Below are positions 12,901 to 29,363 of a DNA stretch of 64,000 nt, piece by piece. The DNA comes from a virus (lineage: Duplodnaviria > Caudoviricetes), in IMG/VR virus record IMGVR_UViG_2889049205_000001, positions 32,001 to 96,000 of that record. One strand, 5' to 3'. Every line of letters begins with the position of its first letter. Position 1 is the first letter of the stretch. Both the position numbers and the translations under genes were made by a program. A model generated the notes under the pieces. That model searched no databases and was not told the DNA's origin. It saw only the letters and a program-made list of their open reading frames with translations.

Positions 12901-15900
12901 GTTCATGATCCGGCTGGTTAACTCGCCGAACAGATTATCTGCCGGCCGCCCCGGAGCTCCGAAGTGGATGATTCCGAGCGAGTGCTTGGCGTAATCGGCG
13001 TTGCTGAAAGCCTGCTTTAGGTTTCCGAAGAAGCCCTGGTCATCCCGCAGCAATGCATCGACAATCTCCGTAGGCTCTTTCTTGCTGAAGATAAAACCGC
13101 TCGTTGTGTCATCCGGATTGGCTTTGATTTTGTTGGTCAGTTCGATGCCATCGTCTTGCACGACCACGGACACGCTTTCGCCGTTGTTCTGCAATTCTGT
13201 AATGGTGCCATTCATCAGCGTCGGCATGCTCATCGGATTCGATCCATACCCCATACGGAAGTGGACCCTGGCGCCAGTGCGGAGCATAATTGACTTGTAG
13301 AAGCTGGCATCTCGATTGCGGCTGCGCTCTGCCTCTTTAGCGGCGAAGCCCGGTGCGAGCAGCGATTGAACCAGATCCCATGCGCCATGATGTGTTAGAT
13401 CCATCGCCTTGACGCCATCAGATAGGCTGCCGTACACGTTGCTCATTTCGAGGGATAAGGTGCTTGAGGCCACCTTCCGGCTGTTCGTATACATGATGTC
13501 CGTAACAGCCTGATACCCAAAGTAACGGTCTGACATTTTGATCGTGCCCATGTATTGCCCTTCATCGACGAACATTAGGAAGAAAGACGGAAACGCCCGC
13601 ACAAGACGGCCACGTCGGTCGTATTTCTCCAGATCATGGAACATCTCACGCAGCGTCGTTTCCTCATCCTCAAAATCGGATTCTTCATGAACCGAGTCCG
13701 ATTTGGCATAGACGGTCGCATTCTGCAGGCTGGCTGTTTTGTAATCCGGCACCGGCAGCTCACTGACTTTCTTTTGAATGGTTGCCTCATCCCATTCTTT
13801 CGTTTGGCCGATGATCGTCAGCATCTTCTTGATTTGGACGACTAGTGCATAGGAGAGCTTCTTGTTGGATTTGTACAGCCGGCCATACTCTGTCTCAAAG
13901 CCAAGGTACAGGCAGACAGCAGCGGCAAAATAGCATCTCTCCGTATCCGTCGCCTTATCGGCGTTTAAGCCGAATGCATCGTAAACATACGAGCTGATCA
14001 TGTTCGAGGTCTTCACCTTGTTGAAATAATACTGTAGGTGTGCGACACCCGTCTCGATGTTGTACTCGTAGTTCATGCCAAGCGAATTCGGCTCCCCCAT
14101 GATAGGACTAACCCGCATAATGCCAATATGCGCCGCTTCCCGGATAAAGCTGGTATCGGCAAAGAACTTCATCTCTGCAGTCTGCATAATTGGCACGTTC
14201 GATTTCTCCACATAAACGTTGCCGAGCGACGTATTGGCGCCGTATCCTGTCGCATAGAAGTGACGAAGCTTTTCGTCAAAGGATTTTGCAAAGGCCACGG
14301 CCCATGATTGCTTAATGACATTCGTCTGCGGGTTCGGATTCAATGGGGTCTGCTGCTGAGCAACGGCAGCAGTAAGATCCTTCATTTTCTGAAAGGTCTT
14401 CTGCCGGATCAAGGACTCGAACTCCGTTGCCGTCAGATTGGTTTCATTCGTTTCTTCCGGTGCCTCCTGAGCAACGCTTGGCTTTTTGCTCGCCGCTCGC
14501 TCGGTCTGCAGCTTGGCCGTATAATCTTTCGATTTCTCATCCGGCTTGAAACTGGCTTTGTCAACCACTGCCGTGCCGCCTATTGTGTCCCTGGCTTCCG
14601 ATTTGAAGGCGCTGTTTAGGTGATCCACCGCCTCCTGACCCACCGTCACAAAGTCATCATAGATCAGGAAGAAATCCGGCTCGACGTAAAACCCATCGTT
14701 GTTGTTAATGATCTGAAAGCCCGCTTCAGCCACTTCCGTGTAGGTTGGTAACTCCAAATCCGGATAGATTTCCACCGCTGTGAAGTTCTTCTTGATCTTG
14801 GCCTCATACAAGACTTTTTGCTTCACGTCGAGATCCATGTACCCTTTGACAGCAAGATCTCTGAATACCGGTCGATCCTTCAGCCAGGATGCCCATCCGA
14901 AGAAAGGGATCAGCAGTTTGGCGTTTGAGTTTCGCCATCCATCGATCTCCCATACCGCATCGTCCCCGTTCATCAGCCTTGTTTCAGCCAGCTTCTTCTG
15001 CGCCCGGTTAAAAGCGATCAGCGTGAGCTGGATATCAAATACGCCTGGCTGCCCCTCGACTGTCGTGGATTGTACGTCTTGGACGACCACGAATTTGACA
15101 CCAAAGAGGTTGGCCAGCGGATGATCAAACTGGATGAAACCGTTAGAGATTTCCTTGTGGTATTCCCGCACCAGATAGTTTGCTCGGCGAACCATGCCAT
15201 CGAACTGCGCCAGTGTTTCCGAGTCATCCGTGCGGAAGCGGGCCACGATCACCGTATCTTGGGATCCCAAGTATTGATGTGTCGGTGTTTCATGCGCCTG
15301 GATCTGCAGCGACGTGATGACGTTCTGGAAGCTTATGCTGAGATCTGTCAGATGCAGATCATCAAACATCCAGTCTTCCATCGTAATGTCATACTCGAAG
15401 ATGGCTTTTTTGTAATGCTCGTCGAAGTTTTGGTTAAACAGATCCTCGTCGAGCTCATCGAACGGAAGTGTCTCTCCATCGAAATCCTCGATGTCCACGT
15501 ATTTCTTATCGGCCATGTCGTCCTGCCATGCCTTTATCATTTTATCCCGGTCCACCCGCCAGCGGCGGATCGCATCAAGGTCGCCCTCAAAGGCTGTCTT
15601 AAACTTGAACTGATCCGTCATCTCCTGGCGCATGGGTTCGAAATACGTATAACGTCCTTCGCTCGGCTCCAGGCTTCGACGATAGTACCAGCGGAATAAC
15701 GGCCAGTTGAAAAGATCGTCAAAGGTGCGGTCATTCTCGTTGAAAATGTAGACGAATGGATTAAATGAATAGAGCTGCAGATTTGCCGTAATCGCCTGCG
15801 GAAATCCTGGCACTGTGGAAACTGTGATTCCGGCAACGCTCACTGCCTGAATATCGTAGACGTCATTCAGGTGCATACTTTGGACCGGAAGAAATGGGCA

Positions 15901-16182
15901 CTTTTTGACCTGGGCCAGTAGCGGCCGCAACTCATTGTTGATTGACTCCATATCCGGGAAAAACAGCGACAAATCGACCACGAGATCGAAATAGCCGCTG
16001 CCCTTAATAAAACTGCCCCGGCTCCGGAGCATATTAACTGTTTCATTTTTCATACGCTTGGTGACGGTGATGGCCGTGGGAGGCACGTAAAACTGCGTAT
16101 CGCCAATGCGCAAATGATGAGGGAGAAGACTCCCATAGAGGGAGTCCCGATCATCTATTCCTTTTGAGGCCATATATAACAC
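9931..16182 (-). CDS. Baseplate hub/tail-associated lysin (GH73 glucosaminidase + M15-like peptidase, degenerate SLT-like domain)
   Basis: 2083 aa. GH73: LAAHAAWETGWG...KNNMFGYGAYD...YATD..WA. M15: ITSAYR...H..G...D...H..HLH. Hub-like RMGYG...G.ITE segment. Confidence 0.8.
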   Translation of the reverse strand: MLYMASKGIDDRDSLYGSLLPHHLRIGDTQFYVPPTAITVTKRMKNETVNMLRSRGSFIKGSGYFDLVVDLSLFFPDMESINNELRPLLAQVKKCPFLPVQSMHLNDVYDIQAVSVAGITVSTVPGFPQAITANLQLYSFNPFVYIFNENDRTFDDLFNWPLFRWYYRRSLEPSEGRYTYFEPMRQEMTDQFKFKTAFEGDLDAIRRWRVDRDKMIKAWQDDMADKKYVDIEDFDGETLPFDELDEDLFNQNFDEHYKKAIFEYDITMEDWMFDDLHLTDLSISFQNVITSLQIQAHETPTHQYLGSQDTVIVARFRTDDSETLAQFDGMVRRANYLVREYHKEISNGFIQFDHPLANLFGVKFVVVQDVQSTTVEGQPGVFDIQLTLIAFNRAQKKLAETRLMNGDDAVWEIDGWRNSNAKLLIPFFGWASWLKDRPVFRDLAVKGYMDLDVKQKVLYEAKIKKNFTAVEIYPDLELPTYTEVAEAGFQIINNNDGFYVEPDFFLIYDDFVTVGQEAVDHLNSAFKSEARDTIGGTAVVDKASFKPDEKSKDYTAKLQTERAASKKPSVAQEAPEETNETNLTATEFESLIRQKTFQKMKDLTAAVAQQQTPLNPNPQTNVIKQSWAVAFAKSFDEKLRHFYATGYGANTSLGNVYVEKSNVPIMQTAEMKFFADTSFIREAAHIGIMRVSPIMGEPNSLGMNYEYNIETGVAHLQYYFNKVKTSNMISSYVYDAFGLNADKATDTERCYFAAAVCLYLGFETEYGRLYKSNKKLSYALVVQIKKMLTIIGQTKEWDEATIQKKVSELPVPDYKTASLQNATVYAKSDSVHEESDFEDEETTLREMFHDLEKYDRRGRLVRAFPSFFLMFVDEGQYMGTIKMSDRYFGYQAVTDIMYTNSRKVASSTLSLEMSNVYGSLSDGVKAMDLTHHGAWDLVQSLLAPGFAAKEAERSRNRDASFYKSIMLRTGARVHFRMGYGSNPMSMPTLMNGTITELQNNGESVSVVVQDDGIELTNKIKANPDDTTSGFIFSKKEPTEIVDALLRDDQGFFGNLKQAFSNADYAKHSLGIIHFGAPGRPADNLFGELTSRIMNEINMNVYEVTGKLNSEVGFWSRMGDFFGVGDADEPGININLYDKTVWDVLNITAAIGQDHVVAVHPFDFRSTIFSGKPTMPIAFGYHVDEDDNISLYRKTFRQFHVFDSWTNIMDNSITATEQNMYNVAIGTYYNEGKLDTTEPIYVDTNIWPEKLRTVNLDTTLNAQGIRLVQNIPLIGGWLNKPFKWYYDEGVAIKIAASGLKDHVKEMYDGYLTLVGEPAVKPFDQMLINDTWNSITGPAEVREVTQMMNMEFGFITMVKPDAVVVNSDQTQMNFMHSCYSIGTALTMTLVLRGILANPNYKGAFPIMNAAWGLIKRQYKKMTQTFKIDKGIDKLKEMLNVNPKPAAGTNIWEYDEVTGKWREYNPISEETRKKWKASGLLDDIIKTLDNLELSKMEDLFDKADDILSDNRILGYDKINITKIAKMRRITSKLAFTGAKIAGKSLRAGRWAVRGAVSATGVGIIPVLIETLVTEVALAGVAEYLERFLFTRQACMIATLQKDGYEFSAGINGHKGSVITDSPDLIQRIFTGKWQSVFFSFLGADVSKYAANQQATDAFDIPKVQTAGETSTDNLPYDPNVVVANFIQAHRRVVPYDEKFKARYEQEVIEAQEAYLKRVDSLDEENNRDSIYTVDPVAVPGQSGTGYANMDLNTPSGISAEAINKAFSGTPLAGLGQAFVAVETSIPPVRNPKTGQTVQIAGVINGLYLAAHAAWETGWGDSRIFRDKNNMFGYGAYDSSPYESAWTFDSKQHCINFAAQQIKRDYLLPDGKYFGGATLVGMNKKYATDKNWANGIAGIMRKIAMLDPNYKPPISASSADGVTVLGTQGSTKYRVQPAEAKSVLIDLKTQPLTNIRLTLVSESSLIRQASYNALERMGSLYKSRTGETMAITSAYRPGDPNWHGTGYGCDVDTPNAPYISGAYRFPKGSKEKRNLEILIDCAVETGFGGIIHGDVDVIATCKTKYPGTVITQRNDHFNHLHLSYIRG

Positions 16183-16185
16183 CCC

Positions 16186-19100
16186 TTACATGTGCTGCTC
16201 AACTTTATCCCGGTACCAGAGCCTCGAAAGGTTATTGGTGTTATCGGAATAGTTTACGGTCATGTTGGACTGACCTTGATATCCGCTCCGGCGCATCCCT
16301 TCTTGAACTAGGGATGACAGCCCTTGTTGCTGGTTTCCTTGCCCTCTAGCGCTAATCGAGACGTGCGCTCCGGAGCTGGGACCGCCGATCGGCGGTAAAG
16401 GTGATTGCGGCACTGGCGCTGCCTGTGGCGGCGGAGGCGGTGGAACCGGCCCAGTGTCATTACTAAGAATATTGTAACCCATTACACCACCTAAAGCTAG
16501 ACCGCCAAGCAAGGCAATTTTCTTGTTTCTTGAACCATTCGGTCCATTGAAGATGTTCTCTGGGATCCAACCGCCGGTCAGGTCGTGCATCATCTCCGGA
16601 ATAGCGCCAGCACGCTTCCCTCGAGCTTCGGATCCCATTACATTCGTTGGGTCCAGTTCGGGTTCGACATTTGGGATAGTCGGATCAATATCAGGCTCCG
16701 GAGCGGCGCCTACACCTCTTTTCATCCTGCCGAACATCCGTGTGAACTCATTAGAGGAAACCCGGTCGCCCTCTTCAAGATTACCGAAAATGGTGTCATG
16801 CACTCTTCGAAGACCTTCATTCTCCACATTAATTCCGGAGCTAGTACCAACACGGAAGCCGGAGTTGGCCAGATTGCCATTCAGGTTACGTGGCTTATCC
16901 AGTAGTCCTATCGCTTCATCGAGCCCGTGTTCTCTGGACCACATGCCGCCATAGCTCTCTTGATCGATCCGGCGCACCTTATTCCAGTCTGAAGCCAGGA
17001 AAGCGGATCGGAACTCGGACACCGGAGACTTCATATCTTCCGTGATCACTACACCGTCCTTTGCGGCGTCGATACCCTTCTGCTCCAAGGTGCTCCCGAA
17101 TTTCGAAAGGAACTTGTACTCATTCGATCCTGTTCCATACGTATGCTCAGCAAAATCTTGGATGGCCGAGTTTAAGTTTGAGATCGTACCGATCTGCGTC
17201 TTACCGATTTTGTTAGCCATTTCATTCGGCAAGTTCGGCTCCATCGGACGGATGACGGTTGTGTCCTGACCACTATACGATTTCACCGCTTCCCGCAGGT
17301 CATAATTCCGGCCGGATGTAGAGAGCTTCTTATTCCCCTCTTGCGTCAAGTAATCTCCCCAGCTGCTGTATCCGCCCATAAACTCGGCAGCCCGCTTATC
17401 TTTCAGAGCAGCCCATTCTTTCTGCACGTTGTCTTCGTCCACGTAAACCATGTGTAACTGGTCTCCGTCGGCATCCCCTTCGAGCTGGTCGCCCGTAAAG
17501 GCTGTCGTCAGCACGTTACCTGTCTTCAGCTTAGGATCGATAGCGATCCGTGTGAACTGGACGGCCGATTCGTGTTTGGATGGGTAACGGATCGTGAGCA
17601 CGTTCTTGTTCTGCTGCCGGTTCCAATCGGAGAGAATATCACTCTCTGCCGCTGTGCCAACATGCTGCTGGCCGATGATGTGCTCGTAGATGCCCATGTC
17701 CTTAGCCTGCTGCGTGGAGATGAACGTCATTTCTTCGCCGAGCATCGCCGAAGCTTCCGGACCCAGGAGCTTTAATGTGCCTGTACCCGATGACGGCATT
17801 TGCGCCTTCAGAGCTCTCTCTCCGGCCATCCCTTTAGAAGTCAGCGTGTCGGTGCCGAGTTGATTCACGTAGCTGTTGACGTTCCGCTGGATGTCTCGCA
17901 TATGCTTCAAGGCGCTGTCACGGCCGGTCTTGGATTTCGCTTCGCCATATTTCTTTATGCTGTCATTAATATTGGCGATCTGCCGCTGCAGCTTATTCAG
18001 GTGGACCAGGTCGCTCTGCCCGTCTCCCTGTAACTGCATGAACGGCACGAAAATCTTGTTGGTTTTGACTGCCGGGCTGTTCTTTCCGTTGATGTTGATA
18101 TCGACTTCTTCCGGAAGCCCCAGCCAGAATCCGTGTCCCAAATCCCGTTGATCTATACCAAGATTGTGGGCAACTGCCTGACGATCCATGATCGTATGTT
18201 TGACCGTGTTCTGGTCGAGCTCCACTTCTGGCATAAATGCGAACTCATGACCTTGAAGAATGCGGTCCTTATAGGGCTGCATTTCCGGAGCATCCGGATC
18301 TACTAGCGCTTTGATGGTGTGCGCCAAATTCTTAACGTCGCTCTGCTCAAAACGATTCTGCTTCTCCATTACGTTCCAGATATGCTCATAAGTCTGTGTG
18401 GCTCCCGATCTGCGAAGGTACCGCATCTCACGATGACCAATCGAAGTGCCATCTAAACCGTTTGCGTAAACTTTTGAGCCATCATTTGCGTTGCCGATTA
18501 CCGACCGTCCTGTTCCATCAACCGACTTGTAATACTGCCGATTGTGCATCATGCGGGTTTCCAGAATACCCGTGAATAATCCGGTGTTGGTTTGTAGCTT
18601 AGCGCCGACTTGATTGGCAATCTTGTGGAAGTCCTCAATATCAATCGGCGCCTGTCTGCTCACATCCATGAATGAACCGTTCTTGAACTCCAAGCCAATG
18701 CGGCCGAAGTCTATTTGCTCCAGCAGCTGATCCCGCTTCTTCCGATCCTGGTTCATGACATGATCGATAATCGTCTTGGCGTAGCCTTCCATCATCATCC
18801 CAAAGTCAGCACGCTTAGCTGGGTTCGGACTGATCATAGCACTGATCCCTTTGTCGCCCGTGATAGCTTCGATGAACCGAAGGCTTGGTGTAATAGCATC
18901 TGTCCCCTTCTCACCGGCAAATGAGAGCTTGAATGGTTTCTCCGACCACTCTACGCCAAATACCTGCGATCCGGTCCCCACAAGTTTGCCTGCATATCGG
19001 TTGTCGTGGCGAACATCTTCCCAAGCGCCATCGACCCATTTGCGCCCAATTACATCACCCGGCCTAACAGCCGCACCTTCGAGCCCCTGGCCACCGACAA

Positions 19101-22100
19101 CAAAATCGCTCCCCCTCGCTGCGGCACCATTGCTAGCGAAGTCTTTGTGCCACTGAAATGTTCCGTTTCCCTTATCATAGAAGTCCTGGTCCGTAACTGA
19201 CATTGAATCCATGAGTTCCTTAGCGATGACTGCTTGCTGCTCATAAACAGTCGGTATCCGGCGTGGATCGACCACTTCCTTGCCGCCTCGGTTTACGAGG
19301 ATGCCTTCTGACCGAAGCAGCCCACGGCCCTGTTCTGTATTCTGTAGATCCGTCACCCGTTTGTGAAGCTCCTCGTTAGTGATGTAGGCTACCTTGAGGT
19401 TTACTCCGGTCCGGGTCGGTCTTCCTTTTCCCTCTTGTTCTGATCGGTAGGCGGCGTTTATCTCTGTCTCGACCATTGGATTGAAGTTGGCGTAAGCGTC
19501 AATCTTCGAGAGACGGCCAGCCACCTCATCAGAGATCATGTACATATTTTGGGACTGAATAGCATTCGGCCGCCCCATGTTAGTGTAATGTCCGTACAGC
19601 GTCATGTCCCGCATGTCCATGGTGGACATTGAGCCCTGTTGAACTCGTCCGTCTTTTACTGACGATACGTACAGGTTGGGGGTGCCCCCATCCCAGCGAA
19701 CTCGGTTGTTCCAATCGCTCATGCCCATTCGTATCTGAAATTGCTTGCTCATGTTTACGTCATCGATCGTCAGGAGCTGCTTCACCTTGCGACTGCGATC
19801 CTTCGAGTCGTAATAGAAAGCAGAATCGTTCAGGTCCCCTTCGGACAACTCTTTGGATTCCAGCATGCTGTGCAACATGGCCGGCATGACGTTGATGTGC
19901 GATTGCTTCATGAAGTCGGATTTGTTGCCTGACCAATCGTAGGTGTCGTTGAAATTATAGATATCTCGCTGCCCGCCAGCCAGGTTTGAGATTGAATCTC
20001 GTAATGTCCGATTGCTCCGGTAGGACGCCTTTTCGTAATCATCTTCGTCCAGCGCTGACAAGATGCCGTCCATACCATGGGCGTATCGCATGCCAATGAT
20101 TTCGGCTGTGGACTTACGAACAGCAGAACCTTTGCCGTCCTGCTCCTTTTCCCATACCGCCACCGTGTGAGCGATCATCCGCTGCTTATTGAGCACCTGC
20201 ATACCATCCTGGTTGATCAGTGGGATCAAAATCTCAACAGCCCTCGGGTGTGTCTTTCCTTCGAGCAGCGCTTCTCGGACGCTTGTGCTGTATTGCGGCT
20301 TGTATACTGTGATCTTCGCCATAGGCGAGTTAATATCTTGATTTACGCTGAGGTCGTACATGATGTTGCGGCCGGAGTTATTCAGTGACTGCAGTACGCT
20401 CTCGACGGCGCCTCGGTTGTTTGCCTTTAGCCCCGACAGGTGATTTGTTTCCAAGGACTCGAAGAACATTTCGGCGTCCGCATGCAGATTAACTTTGCCA
20501 CCCATCGTAAAGGCCTGGCCTTGATAGCTCAGGGTTTTGCGAATCGCCTCTCCTACGATGCTTTGGTTTCTTGCCCCGGTGATTCTCGACATATCACGAG
20601 CTTCAAGCGATGTTGTTTCCGGCGACTCCAGCGGAATGTTCTTGCTGTGCAGGTCCATAGCGATGCGAACCACGGTATCATTGATTTGGCCATTGCTTTG
20701 TGCAATAATGCCGTACCGCTTCTGAAGCTCGGAACCAATTAGGCCATTTTCATGCAGTCCATTTATGAACTGTGTCATCCGGTGCTGCTGTGTCAGCGGG
20801 TTATTGGAATCGTCCTGCTGAATATATCTGCGGATCGCACGTTCTGTTTGCTGCACGGACTGCATGCTGAAGAATCGCTCATCCCCATCTACATTTAAAC
20901 GGAATCCTCGATTCTCCCATGATGCCATCTCACGAGCGCCTACGTGCCGGCCTGCAGCATCATCTCGGCTTACCCCTTGTGTGTACAGGCGCCATGCAAT
21001 ATCTCGCTGCTGCCGAGCAGCTGCTCGCTCTGATGACGTCATGCTGTCCAGGATCGGAATCTGTTGTTCAATAGTGCGGATCGCCTCCTGGAACACAGGC
21101 CGCTCGCTGCGCAGACGAGGCGCCATCCGGTAGAACAGCTTCTCTTCGTCAATATTGTGGCCCCACTGCAGCTGGCCGTTAGCAAAGCCCACCGGCTTAC
21201 TGTTGAAGTCGAGCATGCTGCGATAACTATCGTTGCTGCGGTACGGCTCGACCTCTGCTCGGATCTGAGCCTCATACTTAGAGTAGAGGCTATTCAATAC
21301 GTTAGGATCTGTAGATCCCATAGAGCTGTATTCGGCGAGCGCAAGCGCTTGTGCTTTGGCTGCGATATTCTTCTGCTTGGCGCCCAGACGCTTTTCGTAA
21401 TGCTCCGTGTTCTCGTACATCCGCTTGGCAGCATCGAATCCAGCAGTACGACTCTCGCCGCCGGCACCTGATAAACTGGACATCCGTTCGTATCTGCGGC
21501 GAGCAAGGTCGGTTTCTCGGATCCGTCGGATTTCTGCCTGCTCGTCCTTGCTCATGCCGTTTACGTTATGGAAGCGGCTTTGCACGAACTGGGCAATCTG
21601 ATGCATGGAGTTCGGGCCCTGCCGGGTCACGTAACTGTATCGGTCATTATCGGAATCGAAGAGTTCCAGCACATGGCCATTTATTACGCCCTTATCATCT
21701 GTCAGCTCACGGACGCCATTGACGGTGTACAAAGTGCGAGCATTGATGACCGTGCGATTCCAGGAGACATCGTGCATCGCCATCTTGCCATCTTCAAGCC
21801 TGGCTTGAAAATCGAGATTGTCATCTCCGTAGGCTGCGTAACCGTTTGAGGCGAACAGCTTATCGCCTTTCTTGAGCACTTCTTTCTTGTTCCAAGTGAA
21901 TTCGGATGGCCGGATATTCATGCCTTCCATGGCACCACGGTTTTTGGCCGCATTGATTTTGTTATGAACCTTTGGCAGCGTTTTGTTGATTACTCCACCG
22001 AGACCCCGCTCATCAACGTCGGCGATCGCCGCATGCGCATCATCGCCGTCAATCCCCAGTGTTCGTCTAACCTCATGCATGGACAGGTAGCCCTGCTGGA

Positions 22101-23109
22101 AATATCGCCCCTTCATAACACCTTTGCCGCCGAACTCTTGATGGAAGTCAACCGGGTTGGCGTAAGCTGTCTGCAGTACCCGGAAATAGTCCACATGATT
22201 TTGAGGGCGGGCAATGGTCTGGCCAGTCTTCTTGCCGAACCGGTCCAGTGTCTCCAAGTCGAAGTTCTCCCCGTTGTAGGAGAAGAATGTCTGATCGGCG
22301 TGGCCTTGAACGAAGGTACGGTATTTACGCATCTGGTTGGCGACGGAATGCTTGTCACTCAGGCCGACAAGGTTGTTATAGCCGGACTGGATATGATCCC
22401 GATACATGTCGAAATTGAGAATGAATTTCTGATAACTGTACCGACCATTCATATCCTCAAGGCTCTTGATGATCGTATTATGCGAAAGCGTAGACTCGTT
22501 TAGGTTCGCTGCCTGCAGACCGGCTCCCGAGAGTGTCGAGTAGCGCATAAGGTTAACGATGGATCGGCGCTCAGCGTCGCTCATGTTGTTGAAAGCGAAT
22601 TTGTCCATTTTGATCCGGCGGATCAGAGAATCCAGATAGAGCTGGCTTTCTTTGTCCGGCTTGACTAGGAGGCTCAATTGCCGCCGGTTGTCGGCTTTGA
22701 AAAGTCCATCTTTGGTCTTTTGGAAACCCTGAATCGCAATCTCTGGAACGTGCAGGCCTTTTCCTGATGCTTCATCCCCGAGAGACTCGATATCGAAGGC
22801 GTAAAATACGTTGCTCTGCCCGCTCATGAACTTCTGGAATGCCTCAACCTGCTTTTGTCCCAGCTGCTGATGTGGGCTGCTGAAGTTCTTCAAAATAACA
22901 CTACCGCTCGACTTGATCGTTTTCTGATCCAAGATCGGAGTGTCGTTGATGGCACTTAGTACCCGACTGACCCGATCCTCTCGAGTCGGGTCGTTATCGT
23001 ATGATGCCTTTCGGGTTGCATGGAATGACGATAGCAGCGACCATTGCTGTGAAGCAGGGGTGGCCATCGGAATCCCTGTATTGTCAAAACCGTTTATTTT
23101 GTCATTCAT
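16186..23109 (-). CDS. Putative single-chain two-barrel RNA polymerase fused to an N-terminal DEDDh exonuclease; probably virion-associated
   Basis: Motifs in order: RPNAIQSQ, GVNLKVAY, YEQQAVI, KLSFAGEKG, ISPNPAKR, GTSIGHREM (beta-like); SGTG, IRYPSKH, GDADGDQ (beta'-like); IGTISN, IDAAK. N-terminal FDIES, YNGENFD, HAAIAD. Confidence 0.8.
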   Translation of the reverse strand: MNDKINGFDNTGIPMATPASQQWSLLSSFHATRKASYDNDPTREDRVSRVLSAINDTPILDQKTIKSSGSVILKNFSSPHQQLGQKQVEAFQKFMSGQSNVFYAFDIESLGDEASGKGLHVPEIAIQGFQKTKDGLFKADNRRQLSLLVKPDKESQLYLDSLIRRIKMDKFAFNNMSDAERRSIVNLMRYSTLSGAGLQAANLNESTLSHNTIIKSLEDMNGRYSYQKFILNFDMYRDHIQSGYNNLVGLSDKHSVANQMRKYRTFVQGHADQTFFSYNGENFDLETLDRFGKKTGQTIARPQNHVDYFRVLQTAYANPVDFHQEFGGKGVMKGRYFQQGYLSMHEVRRTLGIDGDDAHAAIADVDERGLGGVINKTLPKVHNKINAAKNRGAMEGMNIRPSEFTWNKKEVLKKGDKLFASNGYAAYGDDNLDFQARLEDGKMAMHDVSWNRTVINARTLYTVNGVRELTDDKGVINGHVLELFDSDNDRYSYVTRQGPNSMHQIAQFVQSRFHNVNGMSKDEQAEIRRIRETDLARRRYERMSSLSGAGGESRTAGFDAAKRMYENTEHYEKRLGAKQKNIAAKAQALALAEYSSMGSTDPNVLNSLYSKYEAQIRAEVEPYRSNDSYRSMLDFNSKPVGFANGQLQWGHNIDEEKLFYRMAPRLRSERPVFQEAIRTIEQQIPILDSMTSSERAAARQQRDIAWRLYTQGVSRDDAAGRHVGAREMASWENRGFRLNVDGDERFFSMQSVQQTERAIRRYIQQDDSNNPLTQQHRMTQFINGLHENGLIGSELQKRYGIIAQSNGQINDTVVRIAMDLHSKNIPLESPETTSLEARDMSRITGARNQSIVGEAIRKTLSYQGQAFTMGGKVNLHADAEMFFESLETNHLSGLKANNRGAVESVLQSLNNSGRNIMYDLSVNQDINSPMAKITVYKPQYSTSVREALLEGKTHPRAVEILIPLINQDGMQVLNKQRMIAHTVAVWEKEQDGKGSAVRKSTAEIIGMRYAHGMDGILSALDEDDYEKASYRSNRTLRDSISNLAGGQRDIYNFNDTYDWSGNKSDFMKQSHINVMPAMLHSMLESKELSEGDLNDSAFYYDSKDRSRKVKQLLTIDDVNMSKQFQIRMGMSDWNNRVRWDGGTPNLYVSSVKDGRVQQGSMSTMDMRDMTLYGHYTNMGRPNAIQSQNMYMISDEVAGRLSKIDAYANFNPMVETEINAAYRSEQEGKGRPTRTGVNLKVAYITNEELHKRVTDLQNTEQGRGLLRSEGILVNRGGKEVVDPRRIPTVYEQQAVIAKELMDSMSVTDQDFYDKGNGTFQWHKDFASNGAAARGSDFVVGGQGLEGAAVRPGDVIGRKWVDGAWEDVRHDNRYAGKLVGTGSQVFGVEWSEKPFKLSFAGEKGTDAITPSLRFIEAITGDKGISAMISPNPAKRADFGMMMEGYAKTIIDHVMNQDRKKRDQLLEQIDFGRIGLEFKNGSFMDVSRQAPIDIEDFHKIANQVGAKLQTNTGLFTGILETRMMHNRQYYKSVDGTGRSVIGNANDGSKVYANGLDGTSIGHREMRYLRRSGATQTYEHIWNVMEKQNRFEQSDVKNLAHTIKALVDPDAPEMQPYKDRILQGHEFAFMPEVELDQNTVKHTIMDRQAVAHNLGIDQRDLGHGFWLGLPEEVDININGKNSPAVKTNKIFVPFMQLQGDGQSDLVHLNKLQRQIANINDSIKKYGEAKSKTGRDSALKHMRDIQRNVNSYVNQLGTDTLTSKGMAGERALKAQMPSSGTGTLKLLGPEASAMLGEEMTFISTQQAKDMGIYEHIIGQQHVGTAAESDILSDWNRQQNKNVLTIRYPSKHESAVQFTRIAIDPKLKTGNVLTTAFTGDQLEGDADGDQLHMVYVDEDNVQKEWAALKDKRAAEFMGGYSSWGDYLTQEGNKKLSTSGRNYDLREAVKSYSGQDTTVIRPMEPNLPNEMANKIGKTQIGTISNLNSAIQDFAEHTYGTGSNEYKFLSKFGSTLEQKGIDAAKDGVVITEDMKSPVSEFRSAFLASDWNKVRRIDQESYGGMWSREHGLDEAIGLLDKPRNLNGNLANSGFRVGTSSGINVENEGLRRVHDTIFGNLEEGDRVSSNEFTRMFGRMKRGVGAAPEPDIDPTIPNVEPELDPTNVMGSEARGKRAGAIPEMMHDLTGGWIPENIFNGPNGSRNKKIALLGGLALGGVMGYNILSNDTGPVPPPPPPQAAPVPQSPLPPIGGPSSGAHVSISARGQGNQQQGLSSLVQEGMRRSGYQGQSNMTVNYSDNTNNLSRLWYRDKVEQHM

Positions 23110-23120
23110 ATCCCCACATC

Positions 23121-26100
23121 CTAAACAATGGAATCCATATTGTACTTCAGGTACGAGTCGATCTCACGGCTCCGGTCTTCTTGATAGTCCATATTGATTC
23201 GGGATCCACCGTCACTGGCCGGAGTCACGGTCACTTGCACGTCCCATAGACCCTGACCATTCAGAACTTCTCGGATGTTGCGCTGCATGTCCCTGTATCC
23301 TCTAAAGTTGCTTTTGCCCGGACCGTTTCCACCTTCGTACATGTCCGGCAGCATGGCAGCCGACTGGACATCATCATCCCAGAAGTTGTAGTCGCTCAAA
23401 TCGATGCCTGCATCTTGAACAGCTTTTACCTGGTAATCTTCCAGGTTTACGTCCGGCTGCCAGCCGACCCAATTCTCATCAGGCAAGAACTTATCCTTGA
23501 AGTATTCTTCCAGTGGAACTTGATCCTCCAGCTCGTAACCCCAAAGGGCTTTGAGGACCCGTCCTTCGTTGTCCGGAACCAGATCCAAAATCCGCTGCTG
23601 ATCTTGAAGTCTGGCTTCTGCGAACTCATTGAAGAACCATTTATCCTTATATGGCATGGACCGCATGACCTTCATCCGGTCTTCGTAAGGATCGACGGCG
23701 TAGAGAGTCGTTTCAGCCTGTTCCTTATAGTTCAGTGCTTGAAGCACGGCATTAGGCAGGTACATCTCGTCCCTATCTTCCGTGATTAAGTTGAGCTGTG
23801 CATTGATCTCAGCTTTTCGATCTTCCCATCCTGCAGGTTGGTTCAAGTAAAGGTTTCGTTTCTCGTCCTGCAGCTCTTGCCGCTTGGCCTTGTTCATTTC
23901 TTTTTTCATGTCCCGGTCGTTAGCGATCGCCTCAACATCAATTCCCTGCTGATGCAGCTCCTCCTTCGCCCTTTCGTACAGGCCGGAGAATTTCATATAT
24001 TTCAGAACATCGAAATACTCGTTGATGTCTTGCTCTTTACGGCGTCGTTCTGGAATCCAGGTTTCACCGGTCTGTGCCTCATGAGCTGATCGCCAAATAC
24101 TGCCGGCAGCGAAAGCGGCCGATGTGGCTCCCATGATCTTGAGATGCCGGAACCCGCTTTTTCCTCGTCCAAACATAAAAATGGCTGGAAGAGCTGAAAA
24201 CATGAGTCCCGCTCCAGCGGCGAACAACACATTACCACGGATACCGGATTGATAGGCTGGGACAACGTAGTCATCAACCATGAAGTTGTCCCACGTCGCC
24301 CAGTCCTTTCCATAGATGTGATCCCGCTCGTATTCTTCCAAAGCTGTTCGGACCGGGAGGAACTTGGAGTTGAGAAAGGTATCGGCGTGCGCCATGGTTT
24401 CCCACCGGCGTCCTTGCGCAATCTCGCCTTTTGTGAATCGGGCATGGACGCCTGCAGCCGTGAAATCCGTCTCATTCTCTCTCATCTGCCCGTTTCGAAT
24501 AATCGTTTGGTTAACATTTTCAAGCCCTTTGAAGACGACAGCTCGCATCGTATTATATGAATCGTCGGAGCTGCGTCTGGATGGATCAGCGCTGATCCCG
24601 ATCGTCACCTTGTCGCCAACCTTAAAGTAAGATTGGAGAACACCCTCAGCTTTGGCTTGATATTTCATGCCGGCAAGTCGAATCGGCGTATCCGGCATCT
24701 CCTCGGTAAGGAAGGTGTAATCATCAAGGAACTTAGACACCGTGACCTTTTGCTTCTCAATATCGTTGTCCTTGAACCGGTAATCCGTAAATTCATATTT
24801 CGCTTTTCGCTTGGATACCTGGTCCTTTATGATTGCAGCTTGTCGGCGCAGCTCTGTGTCCTTGTTGTTGTCCTCGACATAATCCTTCCAGTAGCGATAC
24901 TCGTCGCTCCACGGCGCCACGTCAGCCAGGATCTTGAACTTATCGAAAGCGCCATAGTTCCCTGTCTCATCCGGATGAAGTTGGTTTACTCGCTCATAGG
25001 CTTCGCCTGGGAGTCTGTACTCACCATGTGCAATCTTCTGGTACGGATCACCCGTCTGGAAGTTGATGAAATACCCGCCACCGGGCATCCAGTCTGGCAT
25101 CGTATTTCGGATCGGATTAAACGTATCGAGCTGGCCACTGTCTCTTCTGATAAAACGACGCATAATCTCGGATACATCGCCGCCAGCGCCGCCCAGGTTT
25201 GATTCCCAAAACGCATTGGAAATGTTGGTGGCCGCATCGGCTTTTTGAATGATCATCTTATTCTTGTAAGGATCTCCGCCAATCAGCTCTTCAGCTGCGT
25301 ATTTATAAATACCGAGCGGCTCTGTCCAGTTTTCAAAGGCTTCTTGACTCTGCCATTCGAGGCTCGTCGGGTCTTGCAGGTTCCGCAGTTTACGGTTGAC
25401 GACTTCCTGGCGATATACAAAATCTTGATCAAACATAGCCCGTGGCTTGGTGTCTACCGTTGGAACGGGCTCCGCAGCCATGGCGAACATTTTGTTGATT
25501 GGCATGTTTTGTTTGGCCACATTCGAAGGCACGTAGATGGTGCTACTCGTCGCCGCATCTTGCATGACATAGGCGCCGGTAGCCGATCCGTTATTATCCA
25601 GCTCATTGCTGATGAAGTACCTTGTCGGGTAGCTGCCGGCTTTAGATTCAGCGAGGCGGGCCTTGCCATCCTCAATGTTTGCCATGGCCTGACTGCTCAC
25701 AGTCTGCTGCGGCCGACTGCTGTCGAAATAGGCACCGTATTGGTCCGGGGTCGCTTGAACGACATGCTCCATTCGACCACCCGGCGACACCTTGGTTAAG
25801 ATCGGATCTGCCGGCCGTTCGGCCAATTGATCAGCCTGCTCCTGCACCAACACTGGATCACTCCAGTATTCAGTGTGCATCTGTCTAACTGGCTTCACGA
25901 CTTGGCCAAGCGCAGCGTTTCCGAGATCCCCAAAGACCATTGTGTTTGGGTTGAATAGCGATCCGGTAAGCATGTACGGCCGATCGTAATAGTGCTTGTT
26001 TTCCCACCAATATTTGTCCTCTTCGGAGTTGAACAAGTTGCGGGCAACGCCCAGCGGGTTCTCTAGTGTCGGGAACGCCGAGTGCTCCCAGCGCTCTTGC

Positions 26101-29057
26101 ATCGTAGAGGTCACGCTTGTGTACTCCCAGTCACTCATCGCAAGACGGTACGAGTTTGGTCTGAACTCAGTGATCCGCTCGCCCCGGTAAGCGCCCTTGG
26201 AGCCGAACAACCACCAGCGGCCTTTACGCACTTCGTCAGATCCGTTTTGGTAGTAATCGTACATTTCCTCTTGCGAATAGGCGTCTCGTTCATCTACCGG
26301 AGACCCGCCAGTTGCGATAAAGCCGGCAAGTCGGGTTGCGCTGGCTCGGCCAAACCCTGGAAGATATACTTCCGGACCGCCGCTGAAATGCTCTGCTCCT
26401 GGGTGGAGCATCATGCGTCGCTTGAGCACCTCGGTCTGACCAGTTGCATCACGGGCCGCCGCCTTGTTGAGCTCGGTTGTTGCCTTATATATTTCCCAGC
26501 GGTCTGAGATGCTCTGACCAGTTAACTGCTCGGACTTATCATCGATATAATCCGCATAGGTCGGGATCGCTACGACCGGCAGGAACCGCTTCAGCAGCAG
26601 TGAAGACCACATTTGCAGCCTATTCCCCATTGAAGCATCGGACAATCCCAGCCCTACGCTGCCAAGCGCATCTTGCAGACGGTATGGAATATAGGACATG
26701 TAAGCCGAGAACGTCGTATAATCTTCCATGTTGCGTCGCCCTGTTCTCGGGTCCCATTGTTTTGCGAAGTCCTTGATGCCGCTCCATGAGGAGAATTGAT
26801 TCATAAAACCATTTTCGAATGACATGTTAACGGCCAGGTAATCGTCACCGAACTCATTCACCGGCCGGCTGCCGGAGAACCGCTCCCACATTGGATTCGT
26901 CTTCTTGGTCATCCCAATGACGTGGGATCTAAATGCGGTGTCTCCTGTAAACAGGTTATTGACCCGCTCTAGTGCATCGTCGGTTGCCGAGTAGATCGTT
27001 CGACCTTCTCGAAGGAACTCATAATGCGCATAGAGGTCATTGGCTTCACGCATGTCTTTTCCACGGATGTCTCCACTTTTCTCGAGAGATCTCATAAGAT
27101 CACGGAAACCTTGCTTCGGCCCGGACTTCACTTCCATCATCTGACGGATGAGTTCCAAACTGACCTGCTGATTGATCTGATCCATACCGGTTTGAACCCT
27201 GGTATATTCGCCTGCCAGAAGGTTCGCCTCGCCGATCGGATTGATCCGGCCAAGCACGCCCTCTCGGTTCTGATCGAATTGCCGCCAGAGGTTCCGTATG
27301 CCTTCATTCGCACCTTTGGCCGCCGAATTGGATGATGAGAACGCACCGTTCCCTTGTGGAACTTTCATCTTCGGATTACCCAGGTACTCGAAGAGCTTGA
27401 GCATGTCATCGTCTCGGTTGAAGTTGATGTTGTTATCCTTGACGAATTTTTGGATATGCTGCGGCATATGGCTCTGGATCTGATTGAGCACACGAGGCGA
27501 AAAGCCGGATGTGTATTTCTCGAAATAACCACGGGCCTTGAAGAAGCCTTTGTAATCGACACCCTCTCGCACAGCCTTATCAATCATGTTCCGCTCCCAC
27601 TCCGGGTTGAAGAACTTGCCGGCGACACTGAACCATGCCTGCGCAGTGGTATCTTTGTTCTGATCGCCAAGGTCGAAGATCCGCTTAAACAGGTTTCGAT
27701 CTTTTCCTTCACTGCCCATGCCCGCTGTAGCACGAACCATCCGTGCCTGCGTGCCGAATTGTGATGAGGTCAGTCGGACCTTACGCTTCTTGTTAAGAAT
27801 TTCAAGGGGCTCATCTGCAGCTCCATTGTCGAAGAGGTTGTAGAAGCGGCCATTGAAATACATAGCTTCTTCCTTGAGCGTCTCATTGTTAGCCAGCCCC
27901 CTTTGCGCATTGAGGATTGGCTGGATGCCGCCTCGGTTAAACATCCGGAAAGGAGTATCTCGTCTAGCCTTCCTCGCATTCAGCACATCCCGCACATGGC
28001 CAATCCCGCCGAATATGGTCGGCGACCACCACTCCATCGTCCGTTCCTTAATGTCGTCAAAGGTTTTGTAGTCGAAGAAGTCATGTGCTTTGCCATCAGC
28101 ATTGATGCGGACATACAAATGCTCGTCGAATACGGCTTGTCCGAACTTCTGGTTGTTCGATCGGATACGCTCCAGGTTGATCTTCGTATCCGTGTCGATT
28201 TTCATGCGTCCGGAGCTGTTAAGCTCCAGGATATCATCGATTGTCGCTTGACGGTGGCCACGAATGGCCTCTTTAATGCCGCCTTGTTTGCGAGTGAGCT
28301 CATGCATTTCGCTCATGGCCAGGTCACGGAATTTACGCTGCATCCGATCAACACGAGCCTGCATCTGCTGTCCCTGCTGGTTGACGTTAAAGTTCCGGTG
28401 TGCTGCTCTTGCTTGGATTACCGCATCCTGAATGCTCTTATCCTCAATGCCTCCATGCTTTGCTAACGTCGCCCGGATCTCCCGGTCATGCGCATACTTC
28501 AATGAGAAATTGCCTTTGCTGATGTTACTGCGCTTGTGGAAGGCGGTGGTCACTTTATTAACGGTGTCTTCCGATAGTCCATGCTTACTACGCAAGTCAT
28601 CCATGATGGCATTGAACCGCATGCCTTCTTCGATATGCGAAGGAATCTCCCGGTCCACGAAGTTGTTCATTTGGCGGACGATCCGCTGCATATCGTATTC
28701 CCGATGAGTGCCCTGACGCATGGCTTCTGCCCGCTCCTGCACATTTGTACGGTAACGCTCACGGAACTCTCCATTTCGATGGACCACGTTCATCATGCCC
28801 CGGCCGTCCATCATGGCGACTTCCTCTGCAGCCTGCCGGGCAGCCTTGCCTTGCACCTCGATAAATTGTGCCATTCTGCGCATACCGCCCGTCCGGTGAG
28901 CAAGCGTCATAGCAATAGCACCAATTCCTACGCCAATTCCAACTTTGGCCAGCATCGGCATCTCCTGGCGTTCATCTTCAGATGCCAGGAATCGAGACAT
29001 CGGCCTAGTGTCTCGATCCAAGTATGCGGAAAACTGATTCTCTTGATCTTCTGGCAT
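23121..29057 (-). CDS. Tape-measure-position giant protein with hydrophobic segments and a degenerate SNase-like domain
   Basis: ~1978 aa, start MPEDQ behind GAGGTG. Follows the tail chaperones. Hydrophobic helices near the N-terminus and in the C-terminal third. Confidence 0.6.
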   Translation of the reverse strand: MPEDQENQFSAYLDRDTRPMSRFLASEDERQEMPMLAKVGIGVGIGAIAMTLAHRTGGMRRMAQFIEVQGKAARQAAEEVAMMDGRGMMNVVHRNGEFRERYRTNVQERAEAMRQGTHREYDMQRIVRQMNNFVDREIPSHIEEGMRFNAIMDDLRSKHGLSEDTVNKVTTAFHKRSNISKGNFSLKYAHDREIRATLAKHGGIEDKSIQDAVIQARAAHRNFNVNQQGQQMQARVDRMQRKFRDLAMSEMHELTRKQGGIKEAIRGHRQATIDDILELNSSGRMKIDTDTKINLERIRSNNQKFGQAVFDEHLYVRINADGKAHDFFDYKTFDDIKERTMEWWSPTIFGGIGHVRDVLNARKARRDTPFRMFNRGGIQPILNAQRGLANNETLKEEAMYFNGRFYNLFDNGAADEPLEILNKKRKVRLTSSQFGTQARMVRATAGMGSEGKDRNLFKRIFDLGDQNKDTTAQAWFSVAGKFFNPEWERNMIDKAVREGVDYKGFFKARGYFEKYTSGFSPRVLNQIQSHMPQHIQKFVKDNNINFNRDDDMLKLFEYLGNPKMKVPQGNGAFSSSNSAAKGANEGIRNLWRQFDQNREGVLGRINPIGEANLLAGEYTRVQTGMDQINQQVSLELIRQMMEVKSGPKQGFRDLMRSLEKSGDIRGKDMREANDLYAHYEFLREGRTIYSATDDALERVNNLFTGDTAFRSHVIGMTKKTNPMWERFSGSRPVNEFGDDYLAVNMSFENGFMNQFSSWSGIKDFAKQWDPRTGRRNMEDYTTFSAYMSYIPYRLQDALGSVGLGLSDASMGNRLQMWSSLLLKRFLPVVAIPTYADYIDDKSEQLTGQSISDRWEIYKATTELNKAAARDATGQTEVLKRRMMLHPGAEHFSGGPEVYLPGFGRASATRLAGFIATGGSPVDERDAYSQEEMYDYYQNGSDEVRKGRWWLFGSKGAYRGERITEFRPNSYRLAMSDWEYTSVTSTMQERWEHSAFPTLENPLGVARNLFNSEEDKYWWENKHYYDRPYMLTGSLFNPNTMVFGDLGNAALGQVVKPVRQMHTEYWSDPVLVQEQADQLAERPADPILTKVSPGGRMEHVVQATPDQYGAYFDSSRPQQTVSSQAMANIEDGKARLAESKAGSYPTRYFISNELDNNGSATGAYVMQDAATSSTIYVPSNVAKQNMPINKMFAMAAEPVPTVDTKPRAMFDQDFVYRQEVVNRKLRNLQDPTSLEWQSQEAFENWTEPLGIYKYAAEELIGGDPYKNKMIIQKADAATNISNAFWESNLGGAGGDVSEIMRRFIRRDSGQLDTFNPIRNTMPDWMPGGGYFINFQTGDPYQKIAHGEYRLPGEAYERVNQLHPDETGNYGAFDKFKILADVAPWSDEYRYWKDYVEDNNKDTELRRQAAIIKDQVSKRKAKYEFTDYRFKDNDIEKQKVTVSKFLDDYTFLTEEMPDTPIRLAGMKYQAKAEGVLQSYFKVGDKVTIGISADPSRRSSDDSYNTMRAVVFKGLENVNQTIIRNGQMRENETDFTAAGVHARFTKGEIAQGRRWETMAHADTFLNSKFLPVRTALEEYERDHIYGKDWATWDNFMVDDYVVPAYQSGIRGNVLFAAGAGLMFSALPAIFMFGRGKSGFRHLKIMGATSAAFAAGSIWRSAHEAQTGETWIPERRRKEQDINEYFDVLKYMKFSGLYERAKEELHQQGIDVEAIANDRDMKKEMNKAKRQELQDEKRNLYLNQPAGWEDRKAEINAQLNLITEDRDEMYLPNAVLQALNYKEQAETTLYAVDPYEDRMKVMRSMPYKDKWFFNEFAEARLQDQQRILDLVPDNEGRVLKALWGYELEDQVPLEEYFKDKFLPDENWVGWQPDVNLEDYQVKAVQDAGIDLSDYNFWDDDVQSAAMLPDMYEGGNGPGKSNFRGYRDMQRNIREVLNGQGLWDVQVTVTPASDGGSRINMDYQEDRSREIDSYLKYNMDSIV

Positions 29058-29071
29058 CTGTTGCACCTCGC

Positions 29072-29215
29072 TTATGGCAATGGGCAGCCGGCTTTTTCAT
29101 ACCAGATCTGGAAGAAGATCTCCCAGGCATCTTGAATGCACCATCTGCCCTCTCCGTATTTTCGATTCACCCTGGGGTCCTTATAGATCAGCGATATCTG
29201 CTCATGTAACTGCAT
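29072..29215 (-). CDS. Small hypothetical protein (47 aa)
   Basis: Hand translation MQLHEQISLIYKDPRVNRKYGEGRWCIQDAWEIFFQIWYEKAGCPLP. Fills the gap tightly but has no clear RBS. Confidence 0.4.
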   Translation of the reverse strand: MQLHEQISLIYKDPRVNRKYGEGRWCIQDAWEIFFQIWYEKAGCPLP

Positions 29216-29216
29216 A

Positions 29217-29363
29217 TTAAACTTTGTCCGTCAAAACCCATAGTTCACCTTTTTCGTTTAGTTCTTTCATAAGTGGTTCAGCTTCTTGACGGGTATCAAA
29301 AACTTGCTCCTTACGTTTACCGCCAGTTAACCAAATTACCTTAACTTTTTTCGACAAGACCAT
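29217..29363 (-). CDS. Small AT-rich hypothetical protein (46-48 aa)
   Basis: MVLSKKVKVIWLTGGKRKEQVFDTRQEAEPLMKELNEKGELWVLTDKV, with a GAGGTG RBS. Confidence 0.6.
   Translation of the reverse strand: MVLSKKVKVIWLTGGKRKEQVFDTRQEAEPLMKELNEKGELWVLTDKV

Follow-up and report, generated by a model that had tools for sequence, protein, structure and literature searches.

A predicted single-chain two-barrel RNA polymerase module within a giant tail-operon protein of a 0305phi8-36-like jumbo phage replicon

The locus and the RNA polymerase-like region

The window analyzed here is a stretch of 64,000 nucleotides (nt) from a virus of the Caudoviricetes (Duplodnaviria), corresponding to positions 32,001 to 96,000 of the record IMGVR_UViG_2889049205_000001 (G000:C3:32001-96000; the whole replicon is called C3 below, and positions without this prefix are those of the window). 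On its minus strand lie three consecutive giant genes, the middle one of which (16186..23109) codes for a multidomain protein of 2307 amino acids (aa), henceforth P0001. An earlier note on this DNA had proposed that P0001 conceals a single-chain two-barrel RNA polymerase (RNAP) within a giant gene of the tail module. This claim is strongly supported by a high-confidence structural model and by the conservation of the residues that define the active site of such enzymes.

The gene begins with an ATG preceded by a GGGGA-type ribosome-binding site, just 11 nt past the stop of the upstream 1981-aa open reading frame (ORF). It ends with a stop codon at 16186-16188, approximately 12 nt ahead of the start of the downstream 2083-aa ORF. 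The translation is free of internal stops, and the frame is present in a mechanically generated list of ORFs. The RNAP-like region occupies the latter part of the protein and comprises three segments, all coded on the minus strand: a β/Rpb2-like half (aa 1150-1584; 18358..19662), which holds R1180, E1290, K1394, K1401 and the motif H1559-R-E-M; a connector (aa ~1585-1763; 17821..18357), in which the secondary structure of the model shows two long helices at aa 1706-1756; and a β′/Rpb1-like half (aa ~1764-2050; 16960..17820), which holds the motif MPSSGTG, R1841-Y-P, the sequence DADGD and helices bearing G1974 and K2017.

Every motif quoted in the earlier note is found in the translation of P0001, at approximately the residues it gave. 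In the β-like half, these are RPNAIQSQ, GVNLKVAY...YEQQAVI, K1394-LSFAGE-K1401-G, ISPNPAKR and GTSIGHREM, and in the β′-like half MPSSGTG, R1841-YPSKH and D1879-A-D-G-D1883, together with IGTISN and IDAAK. Translation of the individual segments confirmed that 18907..18930 (minus strand) encodes KLSFAGEK, with the predicted basic pair of the β-like barrel. It likewise confirmed that nt 17461-17475 (minus strand) encode DADGD, as had been noted, with D1879, D1881 and D1883 as the predicted Mg-binding catalytic triad. R1841-Y-P1843 (17581..17589, minus strand) is the counterpart of the NRAPTLH motif of the cellular enzymes (Rpb1 R446/P448).

A divergent family of giant proteins with conserved active-site residues

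A word-indexed search recovered six homologues of 2233-2342 aa with 31-61% identity to P0001. In the seven-sequence full-length alignment, the lysine pair, the HREM motif, RxP and DxDGD are all invariant, as are the DEDDh motifs of an N-terminal domain discussed below. A profile of P0001 residues 1120-2110, run against 1.84 billion representatives, extended this set to 89 representative relatives, nearly all of which are 2100-3100 aa long. A search for loci with the seven-sequence alignment found none in genome contigs and three in IMG/VR, and matches were present in just 3 of the 401 genomes sampled from the class of the host. Searches of P0001 by tblastn against 50,697 phage records and by megablast against plasmids returned no match. 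Relatives in cultured phages surfaced with the family profile and not in single-sequence searches: gp034 of KLEB27-3 (2434 aa, with KADYDGD; RNAP profile E 6e-203) and gp095 of WH1 (2515 aa, with KADHDGD; RNAP profile E 3e-111), which are annotated just as structural or virion structural proteins.

We then examined the RNAP-like region in an alignment of 71 sequences, the relatives in which share only 15-62% identity. D1879, D1881, D1883, R1841, P1843, G1974 and K2017 are present in all 71, and the glycine of DADGD in 66. K1394 is found in 70 of the 71, and position 1401 is a lysine in 62 and an arginine in the remaining nine. Position 1290 is glutamate or aspartate in 69 and R1180 is kept in 66. 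Thus, both the DxDGD triad and the two basic positions, the loss of which from homologues would have spoken against a polymerase, are retained across the family. Eight positions are reported to be invariant in all two-barrel RNAPs, namely R446, P448 and the aspartate triad of Rpb1, and D837, K979 and K987 of Rpb2 (PMC2919709). R1841, P1843 and the three aspartates of DADGD correspond to the five Rpb1 positions among these. K1394 and K1401 lie inside the stretch that is structurally aligned to Rpb2 526-1157 (see below) and are the predicted counterparts of K979 and K987, with E1290 as a collinear candidate for D837.

R1841 and P1843 precede D1879 by 38 residues, a spacing that satisfies the filter [RK]xPx{20,100}DxDxD used by Chaban et al. 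(PMC10770324). To gauge how rare such a signature is, we can consider the whole 7.5-Mb genome: RxPx{25,50}DxDGD occurs in only 4 of its 5015 open frames of at least 300 aa, these being the host RpoC, P0001, a YonO-family ORF of the same replicon and one frame of 350 aa. The motif combination is therefore beyond what chance would be expected to deliver.

Remote sequence similarity to the cellular enzyme is detectable on the β′ side. A profile-profile comparison (hhalign) of the family with the host RpoC gave a probability of 94.2% (E 1.1e-7) over 137 columns, in which MPSSGTG is paired with VDYSGRS, RYPSKH with RAPTLH and GDADGD with NADFDGD. These are, residue for residue, three of the β′ equivalences that the earlier note had drawn. 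Further, when 46 relatives were compared with Pfam, 12 of them matched PF00623 (Rpb1_2, domain 2 of β′), the best at E 2e-4 and none strongly enough to reach the threshold set by Pfam, and other Pfam families were each matched by a single one of the 46.

The predicted fold and its structural relatives

An AlphaFold2 model of aa 1150-2050, computed from the 71-sequence alignment with no templates, reached a predicted local distance difference test (pLDDT) score of 92.8 and a predicted template modeling (pTM) score of 0.91. It replaced a first model from seven sequences, which was unusable (pLDDT 51). In a Foldseek search of the PDB, the model returned at least 500 matches at E <= 0.001; the best 50 are all β′ or β/Rpb2 chains of RNAPs (E 6e-8 to 9e-7), with the AR9 chain 7s01_d as match 3.

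A VIA-align comparison with 48,161 representative chains resolved the model into its two halves. Model residues 1-435 match β/Rpb2 chains at Z 12.9-15.4. When set against yeast Rpb2 526-1157 and E. coli β 562-1298, they align over 320-350 residues at Z 15.5-16.3 and approximately 4 A. The β-like chains of AR9 and of the phiKZ non-virion RNAP match the same N-terminal half at Z 14.6-15.7. Model residues 454-900 in turn match Rpb1, β′ and RpoA′ chains at Z 10.3-11.6, and isolated double-psi β-barrel (DPBB) domains match model residues 620-754 at Z 7.5-9.6. Between the halves, model residues 436-614 give a borderline match (Z 7.7) to the archaeal RNAP clamp-domain construct 3qqc_A, and the connector may accordingly be a clamp-like element in the predicted structure. 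The model as a whole also matches single-chain enzymes: QDE-1 (Z 11.4, 353 residues aligned), P74-26 gp62 (Z 10.6), RDR2 (Z 9.7) and P23-45 gp96 (Z 8.6-8.7, ~290 residues aligned).

Among viral proteins, the best match in BFVD is a "minor tail protein" of a gut-virome phage (E 2e-24, template modeling (TM) score 0.59), alongside an unnamed viral protein; further BFVD matches are RNAP subunits of giant viruses and phages. The best structural neighbor in the ESM-Atlas is a phage cluster that combines PF00562 (Rpb2_6) and PF00623 in one chain of ~911 aa (TM scores 0.52/0.51, 594 residues aligned). Neither phi14:2 gp66 (6VR4) nor PolD is among the structural matches listed, which is no proof that their folds differ.

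The model thus contains paired β and β′ barrel halves, the absence of which would have told against the proposal of a polymerase. It is nearly certain, on the strength of this model and the conservation of the active-site residues, that aa ~1150-2050 represent a complete predicted single-chain two-barrel RNAP core composed of a β-like half, a connector and a β′-like half, with its active site intact. One could object that the RNAP-like model is a prediction artifact and that the motifs match by chance. The poor model from seven sequences would be in line with this, as would the lack of any significant Pfam or PDB sequence match for P0001 and the equally empty search of PDB sequences with the seven-sequence profile. 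However, the prediction used no templates, the alignment to the host RpoC (E 1e-7) holds the motifs in register and is accompanied by recurrent PF00623 matches, and the signature is rare among the frames of the genome. Moreover, five structure libraries or aligners all return RNAPs. We hence regard an artifact as hardly credible.

As to its affinities, the module is nearer to the β/β′ of cellular and jumbo-phage enzymes and to Pfam-recognized fused phage RNAPs than to YonO, QDE-1 and the crAss-like enzymes. The earlier note had likened IGTISN and IDAAK to helical-bundle motifs of YonO, the crAss-like virion RNAP and QDE-1; the motifs themselves are present, while the module that carries them is more like β/β′.

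The exonuclease-like domain, the middle region and the C-terminal module

The N-terminal part of P0001 (aa ~95-375; 21985..22827, minus strand) appears to be a DEDDh (DnaQ-like) 3′-5′ exonuclease-like domain, as judged from its motif residues, its language-model neighbors and a domain hidden Markov model (HMM). The motifs are ExoI, D106-x-E108; ExoII, N279..F283-D284; and ExoIII, H359-x4-D364, which are invariant in the seven homologues. The language-model neighbors of the region are RNase_T/DnaQ-like clusters (score 0.90), and there are weak profile matches to PF13482 (E 0.07) and to the exonuclease motifs of family-B DNA polymerases in the PDB (E 0.4). The domain HMM matches 57 of the 74 full-length relatives.

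This domain is separated from the RNAP core by a middle region (aa ~420-1149; 19663..21852, minus strand) that matches nothing in Pfam, PHROG or PDB sequences; in an atlas feature search, aa 430-1150 returned nothing above 0.80. Beyond the core, the protein ends in a C-terminal module (aa ~2185-2307; 16189..16557, minus strand) featuring a glycine-rich hydrophobic helix (KKIALLGGLALGGVMGYNIL), a poly-proline stretch and a conserved end (..LWYRDKVE..). It is likely an assembly or membrane module. Its HMM matches 48 of the 74 full-length relatives, and it is also found in WH1 gp095 (E 3e-12), in KLEB27-3 gp034 and in the C-terminal fragment of the positional homologue from a Moorella phage (E 4e-6).

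The tail-gene neighborhood

P0001 is the second giant gene after the chaperone-position genes and matches no tape-measure family in Pfam or PHROGs. The giant upstream of it (23121..29066, minus strand; 1981 aa), in the tape-measure position, is a homologue of gp145 of Bacillus phage 0305phi8-36 (BLASTP 37% identity over 638 aa, E 3e-116). The giant downstream of it (9931..16182, minus strand; 2083 aa) is a baseplate hub/tail lysin homologous to gp147 (phrog_20474, 1226 bits; Glucosaminidase, E 3e-13). By tblastn, the latter matches the hub and lysin genes of 0305phi8-36-like phages, its relatives being from Bacillus phage 0305phi8-36, Moorella phage MTATph1 and the Bacillus phages KLEB27-3, WH1 and Edson, which marks the replicon as kin to these phages. 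Although the list of ORFs has this hub/lysin frame begin with the GTG at 16182, an ATG at 16173, which follows AAGGGG, is its probable true start.

Further upstream on the same strand are a tail sheath gene (32939-35707; phrog_16991, E 4e-174), a sheath paralogue, tube-like paralogues and the chaperone-position genes; baseplate wedge and tail-fiber-like genes lie downstream of P0001. Three adjacent ORFs at 30799-32872 (258, 170 and 241 aa) match phrog_9206, which bears the label "major head protein". Flanked by the sheath on one side and the chaperone-position genes on the other, they occupy the place of the tail tube paralogues in 0305phi8-36, and the label is probably misleading here. In 9500-29400, the frequency of promoter-like and terminator-like sites does not exceed that in shuffled sequence. 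Given this lack of an excess and the tiny gaps between them, the three giant genes look like one transcription unit.

The order of a gp145-like gene, a P0001-like gene and a hub/lysin gene is kept in three IMG/VR contigs (70-197 kb), in KLEB27-3 and in WH1. The same slots in 0305phi8-36 are filled by gp145 (a virion protein), gp146 (a virion protein termed a "hypothetical tape measure") and gp147 (the hub), all three being virion proteins by mass spectrometry according to the sequence record. Hardies et al. took the occupant of the gp146 slot for the tape measure purely because of its length (PMC2147016). The proteins gp146 (L001:7582-15195) and CDS0027 of Moorella phage MTATph1 (L002:7775-15131) are the positional counterparts of P0001. 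We considered whether these two could be diverged RNAP orthologues and rejected the idea, as neither has a DxDGD motif or a profile match in the RNAP region. Both retain an exonuclease-type D-I/L-E-T-T motif (DIETTG/DLETT) in the middle of the protein, at aa 1223 and 870, respectively. The Moorella phage gene is seemingly broken by an inserted transposase gene, with a separate ORF of 313 aa carrying the conserved C-terminal module.

The neighborhood invites the reading that P0001 has a purely structural role as a tail or tape-measure protein, its RNAP-like fold being an ancient one retained as a non-catalytic scaffold. The gene does occupy the slot called tape measure in 0305phi8-36 on account of its length, its relatives are annotated just as structural or minor tail proteins, and the slot can evidently be filled by a protein that has no RNAP module. 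Yet, an inactive scaffold would not retain all three metal-binding aspartates, R-x-P and both basic residues across 71 sequences down to 15% identity, and the modeled region is compact and globular rather than an extended helix. A mere scaffold is therefore quite improbable. The catalytically defining residues are conserved across a divergent family of at least 89 giant proteins, and we consider it probable that the predicted polymerase is active.

The replicon and its second polymerase

C3 is 228,841 bp in length and its ends are duplicated: positions 1-17066 equal 211772-228837 with 0 mismatches and 8 indels. This end duplication of 17,066 bp implies a replicon unit of ~211.8 kb and represents either an untrimmed overlap of a circular assembly or, as in 0305phi8-36, a long terminal repeat. 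C3 is a ~212-kb 0305phi8-36-like jumbo myovirus replicon, the myovirus type following from the presence of the sheath gene. The earlier note had called it a temperate plasmid-prophage, a label for which we find no support. Searches for ParB_N (PF02195) and tyrosine integrases (PF00589) were empty on C3, all their matches falling on C2 or the chromosome, and no search was aimed at other maintenance systems. A stretch of ~80 bp at 61348-61429 (C3:93348-93429) has four chromosomal counterparts of 94-95% identity and is possibly a replicon-borne tRNA gene.

A second candidate two-barrel RNAP is encoded on the plus strand of the replicon at C3:99,347-103,042 (L004), a frame of 1232 aa with the motifs RNPMVG...GGADNDGD. 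It matches phrog_8308 at E 7e-9 and 2e-6 (the latter at C3:101027-101536). We identify phrog_8308 as the YonO family on the grounds that it also matches the 1246-aa YonO-like ORF of 0305phi8-36 (E 3e-30) and the B. subtilis control genome. L004 has no match in Pfam, the PDB or the phage tblastn search, and a protein search with it in four related phage genomes found nothing.

Just past this gene begins a series of hairpins with the motif N4-C-TRTC-G-N4-N-ATTC, in which a stem of 4 bp encloses the C-TRTC-G loop region and is followed by ATTC. We found 15 copies, of which 8 have perfect stems, on the plus strand at C3:103,249-158,957 and 0 on the minus strand of C3. The same motif has 28 copies in 14 Mb of chromosomal strands (both strands of the 7-Mb chromosome), and the stems of these are all imperfect. 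These hairpins are candidates for a phage-specific class of signals, which may be promoters or regulatory hairpins. The replicon also encodes a Pol III alpha.

Comparison with known polymerases

The closest proven precedent for P0001 is gp96 of the Thermus phage P23-45, a two-barrel virion RNAP fused to the tape measure (PDB 8H2M/8H2N), in a phage that also encodes a second, non-virion RNAP (PMC10770324). The earlier note had deemed a tail-borne RNAP surprising, and it is less so in light of this published case. Both gp96 and P0001 are giant tail-module proteins with hydrophobic or membrane segments that contain a single-chain two-barrel RNAP with the DxDGD triad, and both come from replicons with a second, separately encoded single-chain RNAP. 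However, the differences are substantial. P23-45 is a siphovirus, whereas C3 is of the myovirus type. The RNAP of gp96 is at the N-terminus of 5002 aa, whereas that of P0001 occupies residues 1150-2050 of 2307. The former is clamp-less and belongs to the phage/QDE-1 clade, whereas the latter is nearer to β/β′ and has the possible clamp-like connector (Z 7.7, borderline). Further, gp96 lacks an exonuclease domain, which P0001 appears to possess, and its metallopeptidase domain was not found in P0001. Finally, the activity and packaging of gp96 are proven, and those of P0001 predicted.

The RNAPs of the phiKZ-like and AR9/PBS1 phages share with P0001 their origin in jumbo phages and their β/β′ lineage, and their packaging in virions is established. 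In contrast to P0001, which is one chain encoded in the tail operon and fused to non-polymerase domains, they consist of 4-5 polypeptides, are encoded outside the tail module and are carried in the head. The ESM-Atlas phage cluster with PF00562 and PF00623 (208 members) has the same β-then-β′ order in one chain. Its members are stand-alone proteins of ~900 aa recognized by Pfam, whereas the P0001 family falls below the Pfam thresholds and its module is lodged inside proteins of 2100-3100 aa with exonuclease and C-terminal modules.

Another fusion of this kind is NCgl1702 of C. glutamicum, described as a β::β′ fusion of 2169 aa from a prophage or mobile element (PMC2919709, PMC7824862). By description, it resembles P0001 in being giant, with just the two-barrel core resembling β/β′ and the rest matching nothing. 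Neither description connects it with a tail module or with an exonuclease, and no protein of 2169 aa is among our 89 profile matches. As judged from these descriptions, NCgl1702 is possibly a related precedent.

Members of the clade of SPbeta YonO, 0305phi8-36 orf99 and QDE-1 likewise combine two barrels and a DxDGD-type triad in a single chain. P0001 has no PHROG match to the YonO family phrog_8308 at E <= 0.01, and no signal came from comparing the family profile by hhalign with L004, the YonO-family frame of C3. The RYPTFH/NADxDGD-type motifs and the hhalign match of the P0001 family point to β′ rather than to the YonO clade. Lastly, phi14:2 gp66 (PDB 6VR4) and the N4 virion RNAP share with P0001 the placement of an RNAP within a protein of more than 2000 aa, encoded with other giants beside the tail genes. 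These two are virion proteins of podoviruses that are ejected into the host; the N4 enzyme is T7-like and not two-barrel, and gp66 is of the QDE-1-like clade.

Functional interpretation

Taken together, the best explanation for these observations is that P0001 is a virion-module protein with an RNAP core that is injected to start phage transcription, a reading to which we assign a probability of roughly 70%. We infer packaging and injection from the position of the gene and the annotation of its homologues. By analogy with known systems, we hold with moderate confidence that P0001 would be packaged in the virion and act at the start of infection. It would be made late and built into the tail or the ejection apparatus via its C-terminal module, as a counterpart of P23-45 gp96, crAss-like gp66 and the virion RNAPs of N4 and phiKZ. 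Upon delivery into the cell with the DNA, it would transcribe the first phage genes independently of the host RNAP. The YonO-family RNAP may then take over, with the 15 hairpin motifs lying downstream of its gene.

Several observations weigh against this reading. With respect to the polymerase itself, searches with the whole protein against Pfam, PHROGs and PDB sequences gave no meaningful match. On the β side, hhalign of the family profile against the host RpoB returned a probability of 1%, that is, no signal, and PF00562 had no match among the 46 relatives. The β-like half is thus recognized from the model and the conserved residues. The β-side equivalences drawn by the earlier note fare accordingly: they lie inside the range structurally aligned to E. 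coli β 562-1298, and they gain nothing from the comparison with the host RpoB. With respect to the role in the virion, a folded polymerase of ~100 kDa is hard to square with a classical extended tape-measure protein inside the tail tube. Since gp146 and its Moorella counterpart lack the RNAP module, that module is not essential to the structural role of the slot. Further, the "structural" labels of the KLEB27-3 and WH1 proteins could not be traced to published mass spectrometry, a literature search having found no virion proteomics paper for either phage. Finally, the fusion of a proofreading-type exonuclease to a two-barrel polymerase is a feature more typical of DNA polymerases.

This last point, together with the presence of the exonuclease in the majority of the full-length relatives, brings up the alternative that P0001 is active as a two-barrel polymerase but has a role other than that of an injected transcriptase. 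It could be an intracellular late or specialized RNAP, a primer-making or end-copying enzyme working with its exonuclease, or a PolD-like DNA polymerase, with its place in the tail operon reflecting timing or history. The matches of the whole module to QDE-1 and plant RDR2, which copy single-stranded templates starting at the ends, fit such a role, as does the retention of the exonuclease motif without the polymerase in gp146 and its Moorella counterpart; the case for packaging is itself one of analogy. However, the best structural matches, including those beyond the barrels, are to the β/β′ of DNA-dependent RNAPs, and PolD is not among the matches listed. The gene has a homologue of a virion protein on either side, with no gap large enough for a promoter, its C-terminal module is common to the positional homologues, and the cultured relatives are annotated as structural. 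Moreover, for intracellular work the replicon already has its Pol III alpha and its YonO-family RNAP. We therefore consider an intracellular polymerase unlikely and favor the injected transcriptase.

Implications

To our knowledge, the proven two-barrel virion RNAPs are the multisubunit enzymes of phiKZ-like phages, gp66 of crAss-like phages and gp96 of one group of Thermus siphoviruses. A literature search found no RNAP assignment for the P0001 family, and the published list of two-RNAP phages does not include its cultured relatives. Being absent from Pfam, PHROGs and this two-RNAP survey, the family is missed by current annotation pipelines. We tentatively put forward a broader proposal, on which the odds are slightly adverse: that this widespread unannotated family of giant tail-module proteins of 0305phi8-36-like jumbo myoviruses, including KLEB27-3 and WH1, may represent a new class of virion RNAPs. 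These would permanently combine, in one chain, a β::β′ core of the cellular lineage, a DEDDh exonuclease and a tail anchor, and would be ejected through the contractile tail for host-independent transcription. If true, myoviruses would gain their first tail-borne RNAP and the two-barrel RNAPs their first member fused to an exonuclease.

Such a finding raises the question of how a folded polymerase of ~100 kDa would pass through the tail. Virion-carried RNAPs allow phages to begin transcription without the host enzyme. The present finding would extend the tail-fused RNAP to contractile-tailed jumbo phages of Bacillota, with an enzyme nearer to β/β′ than other single-chain phage RNAPs, and would provide a candidate function for proteins that, in cultured phages as in gut viromes, bear no label but "structural" or "minor tail".

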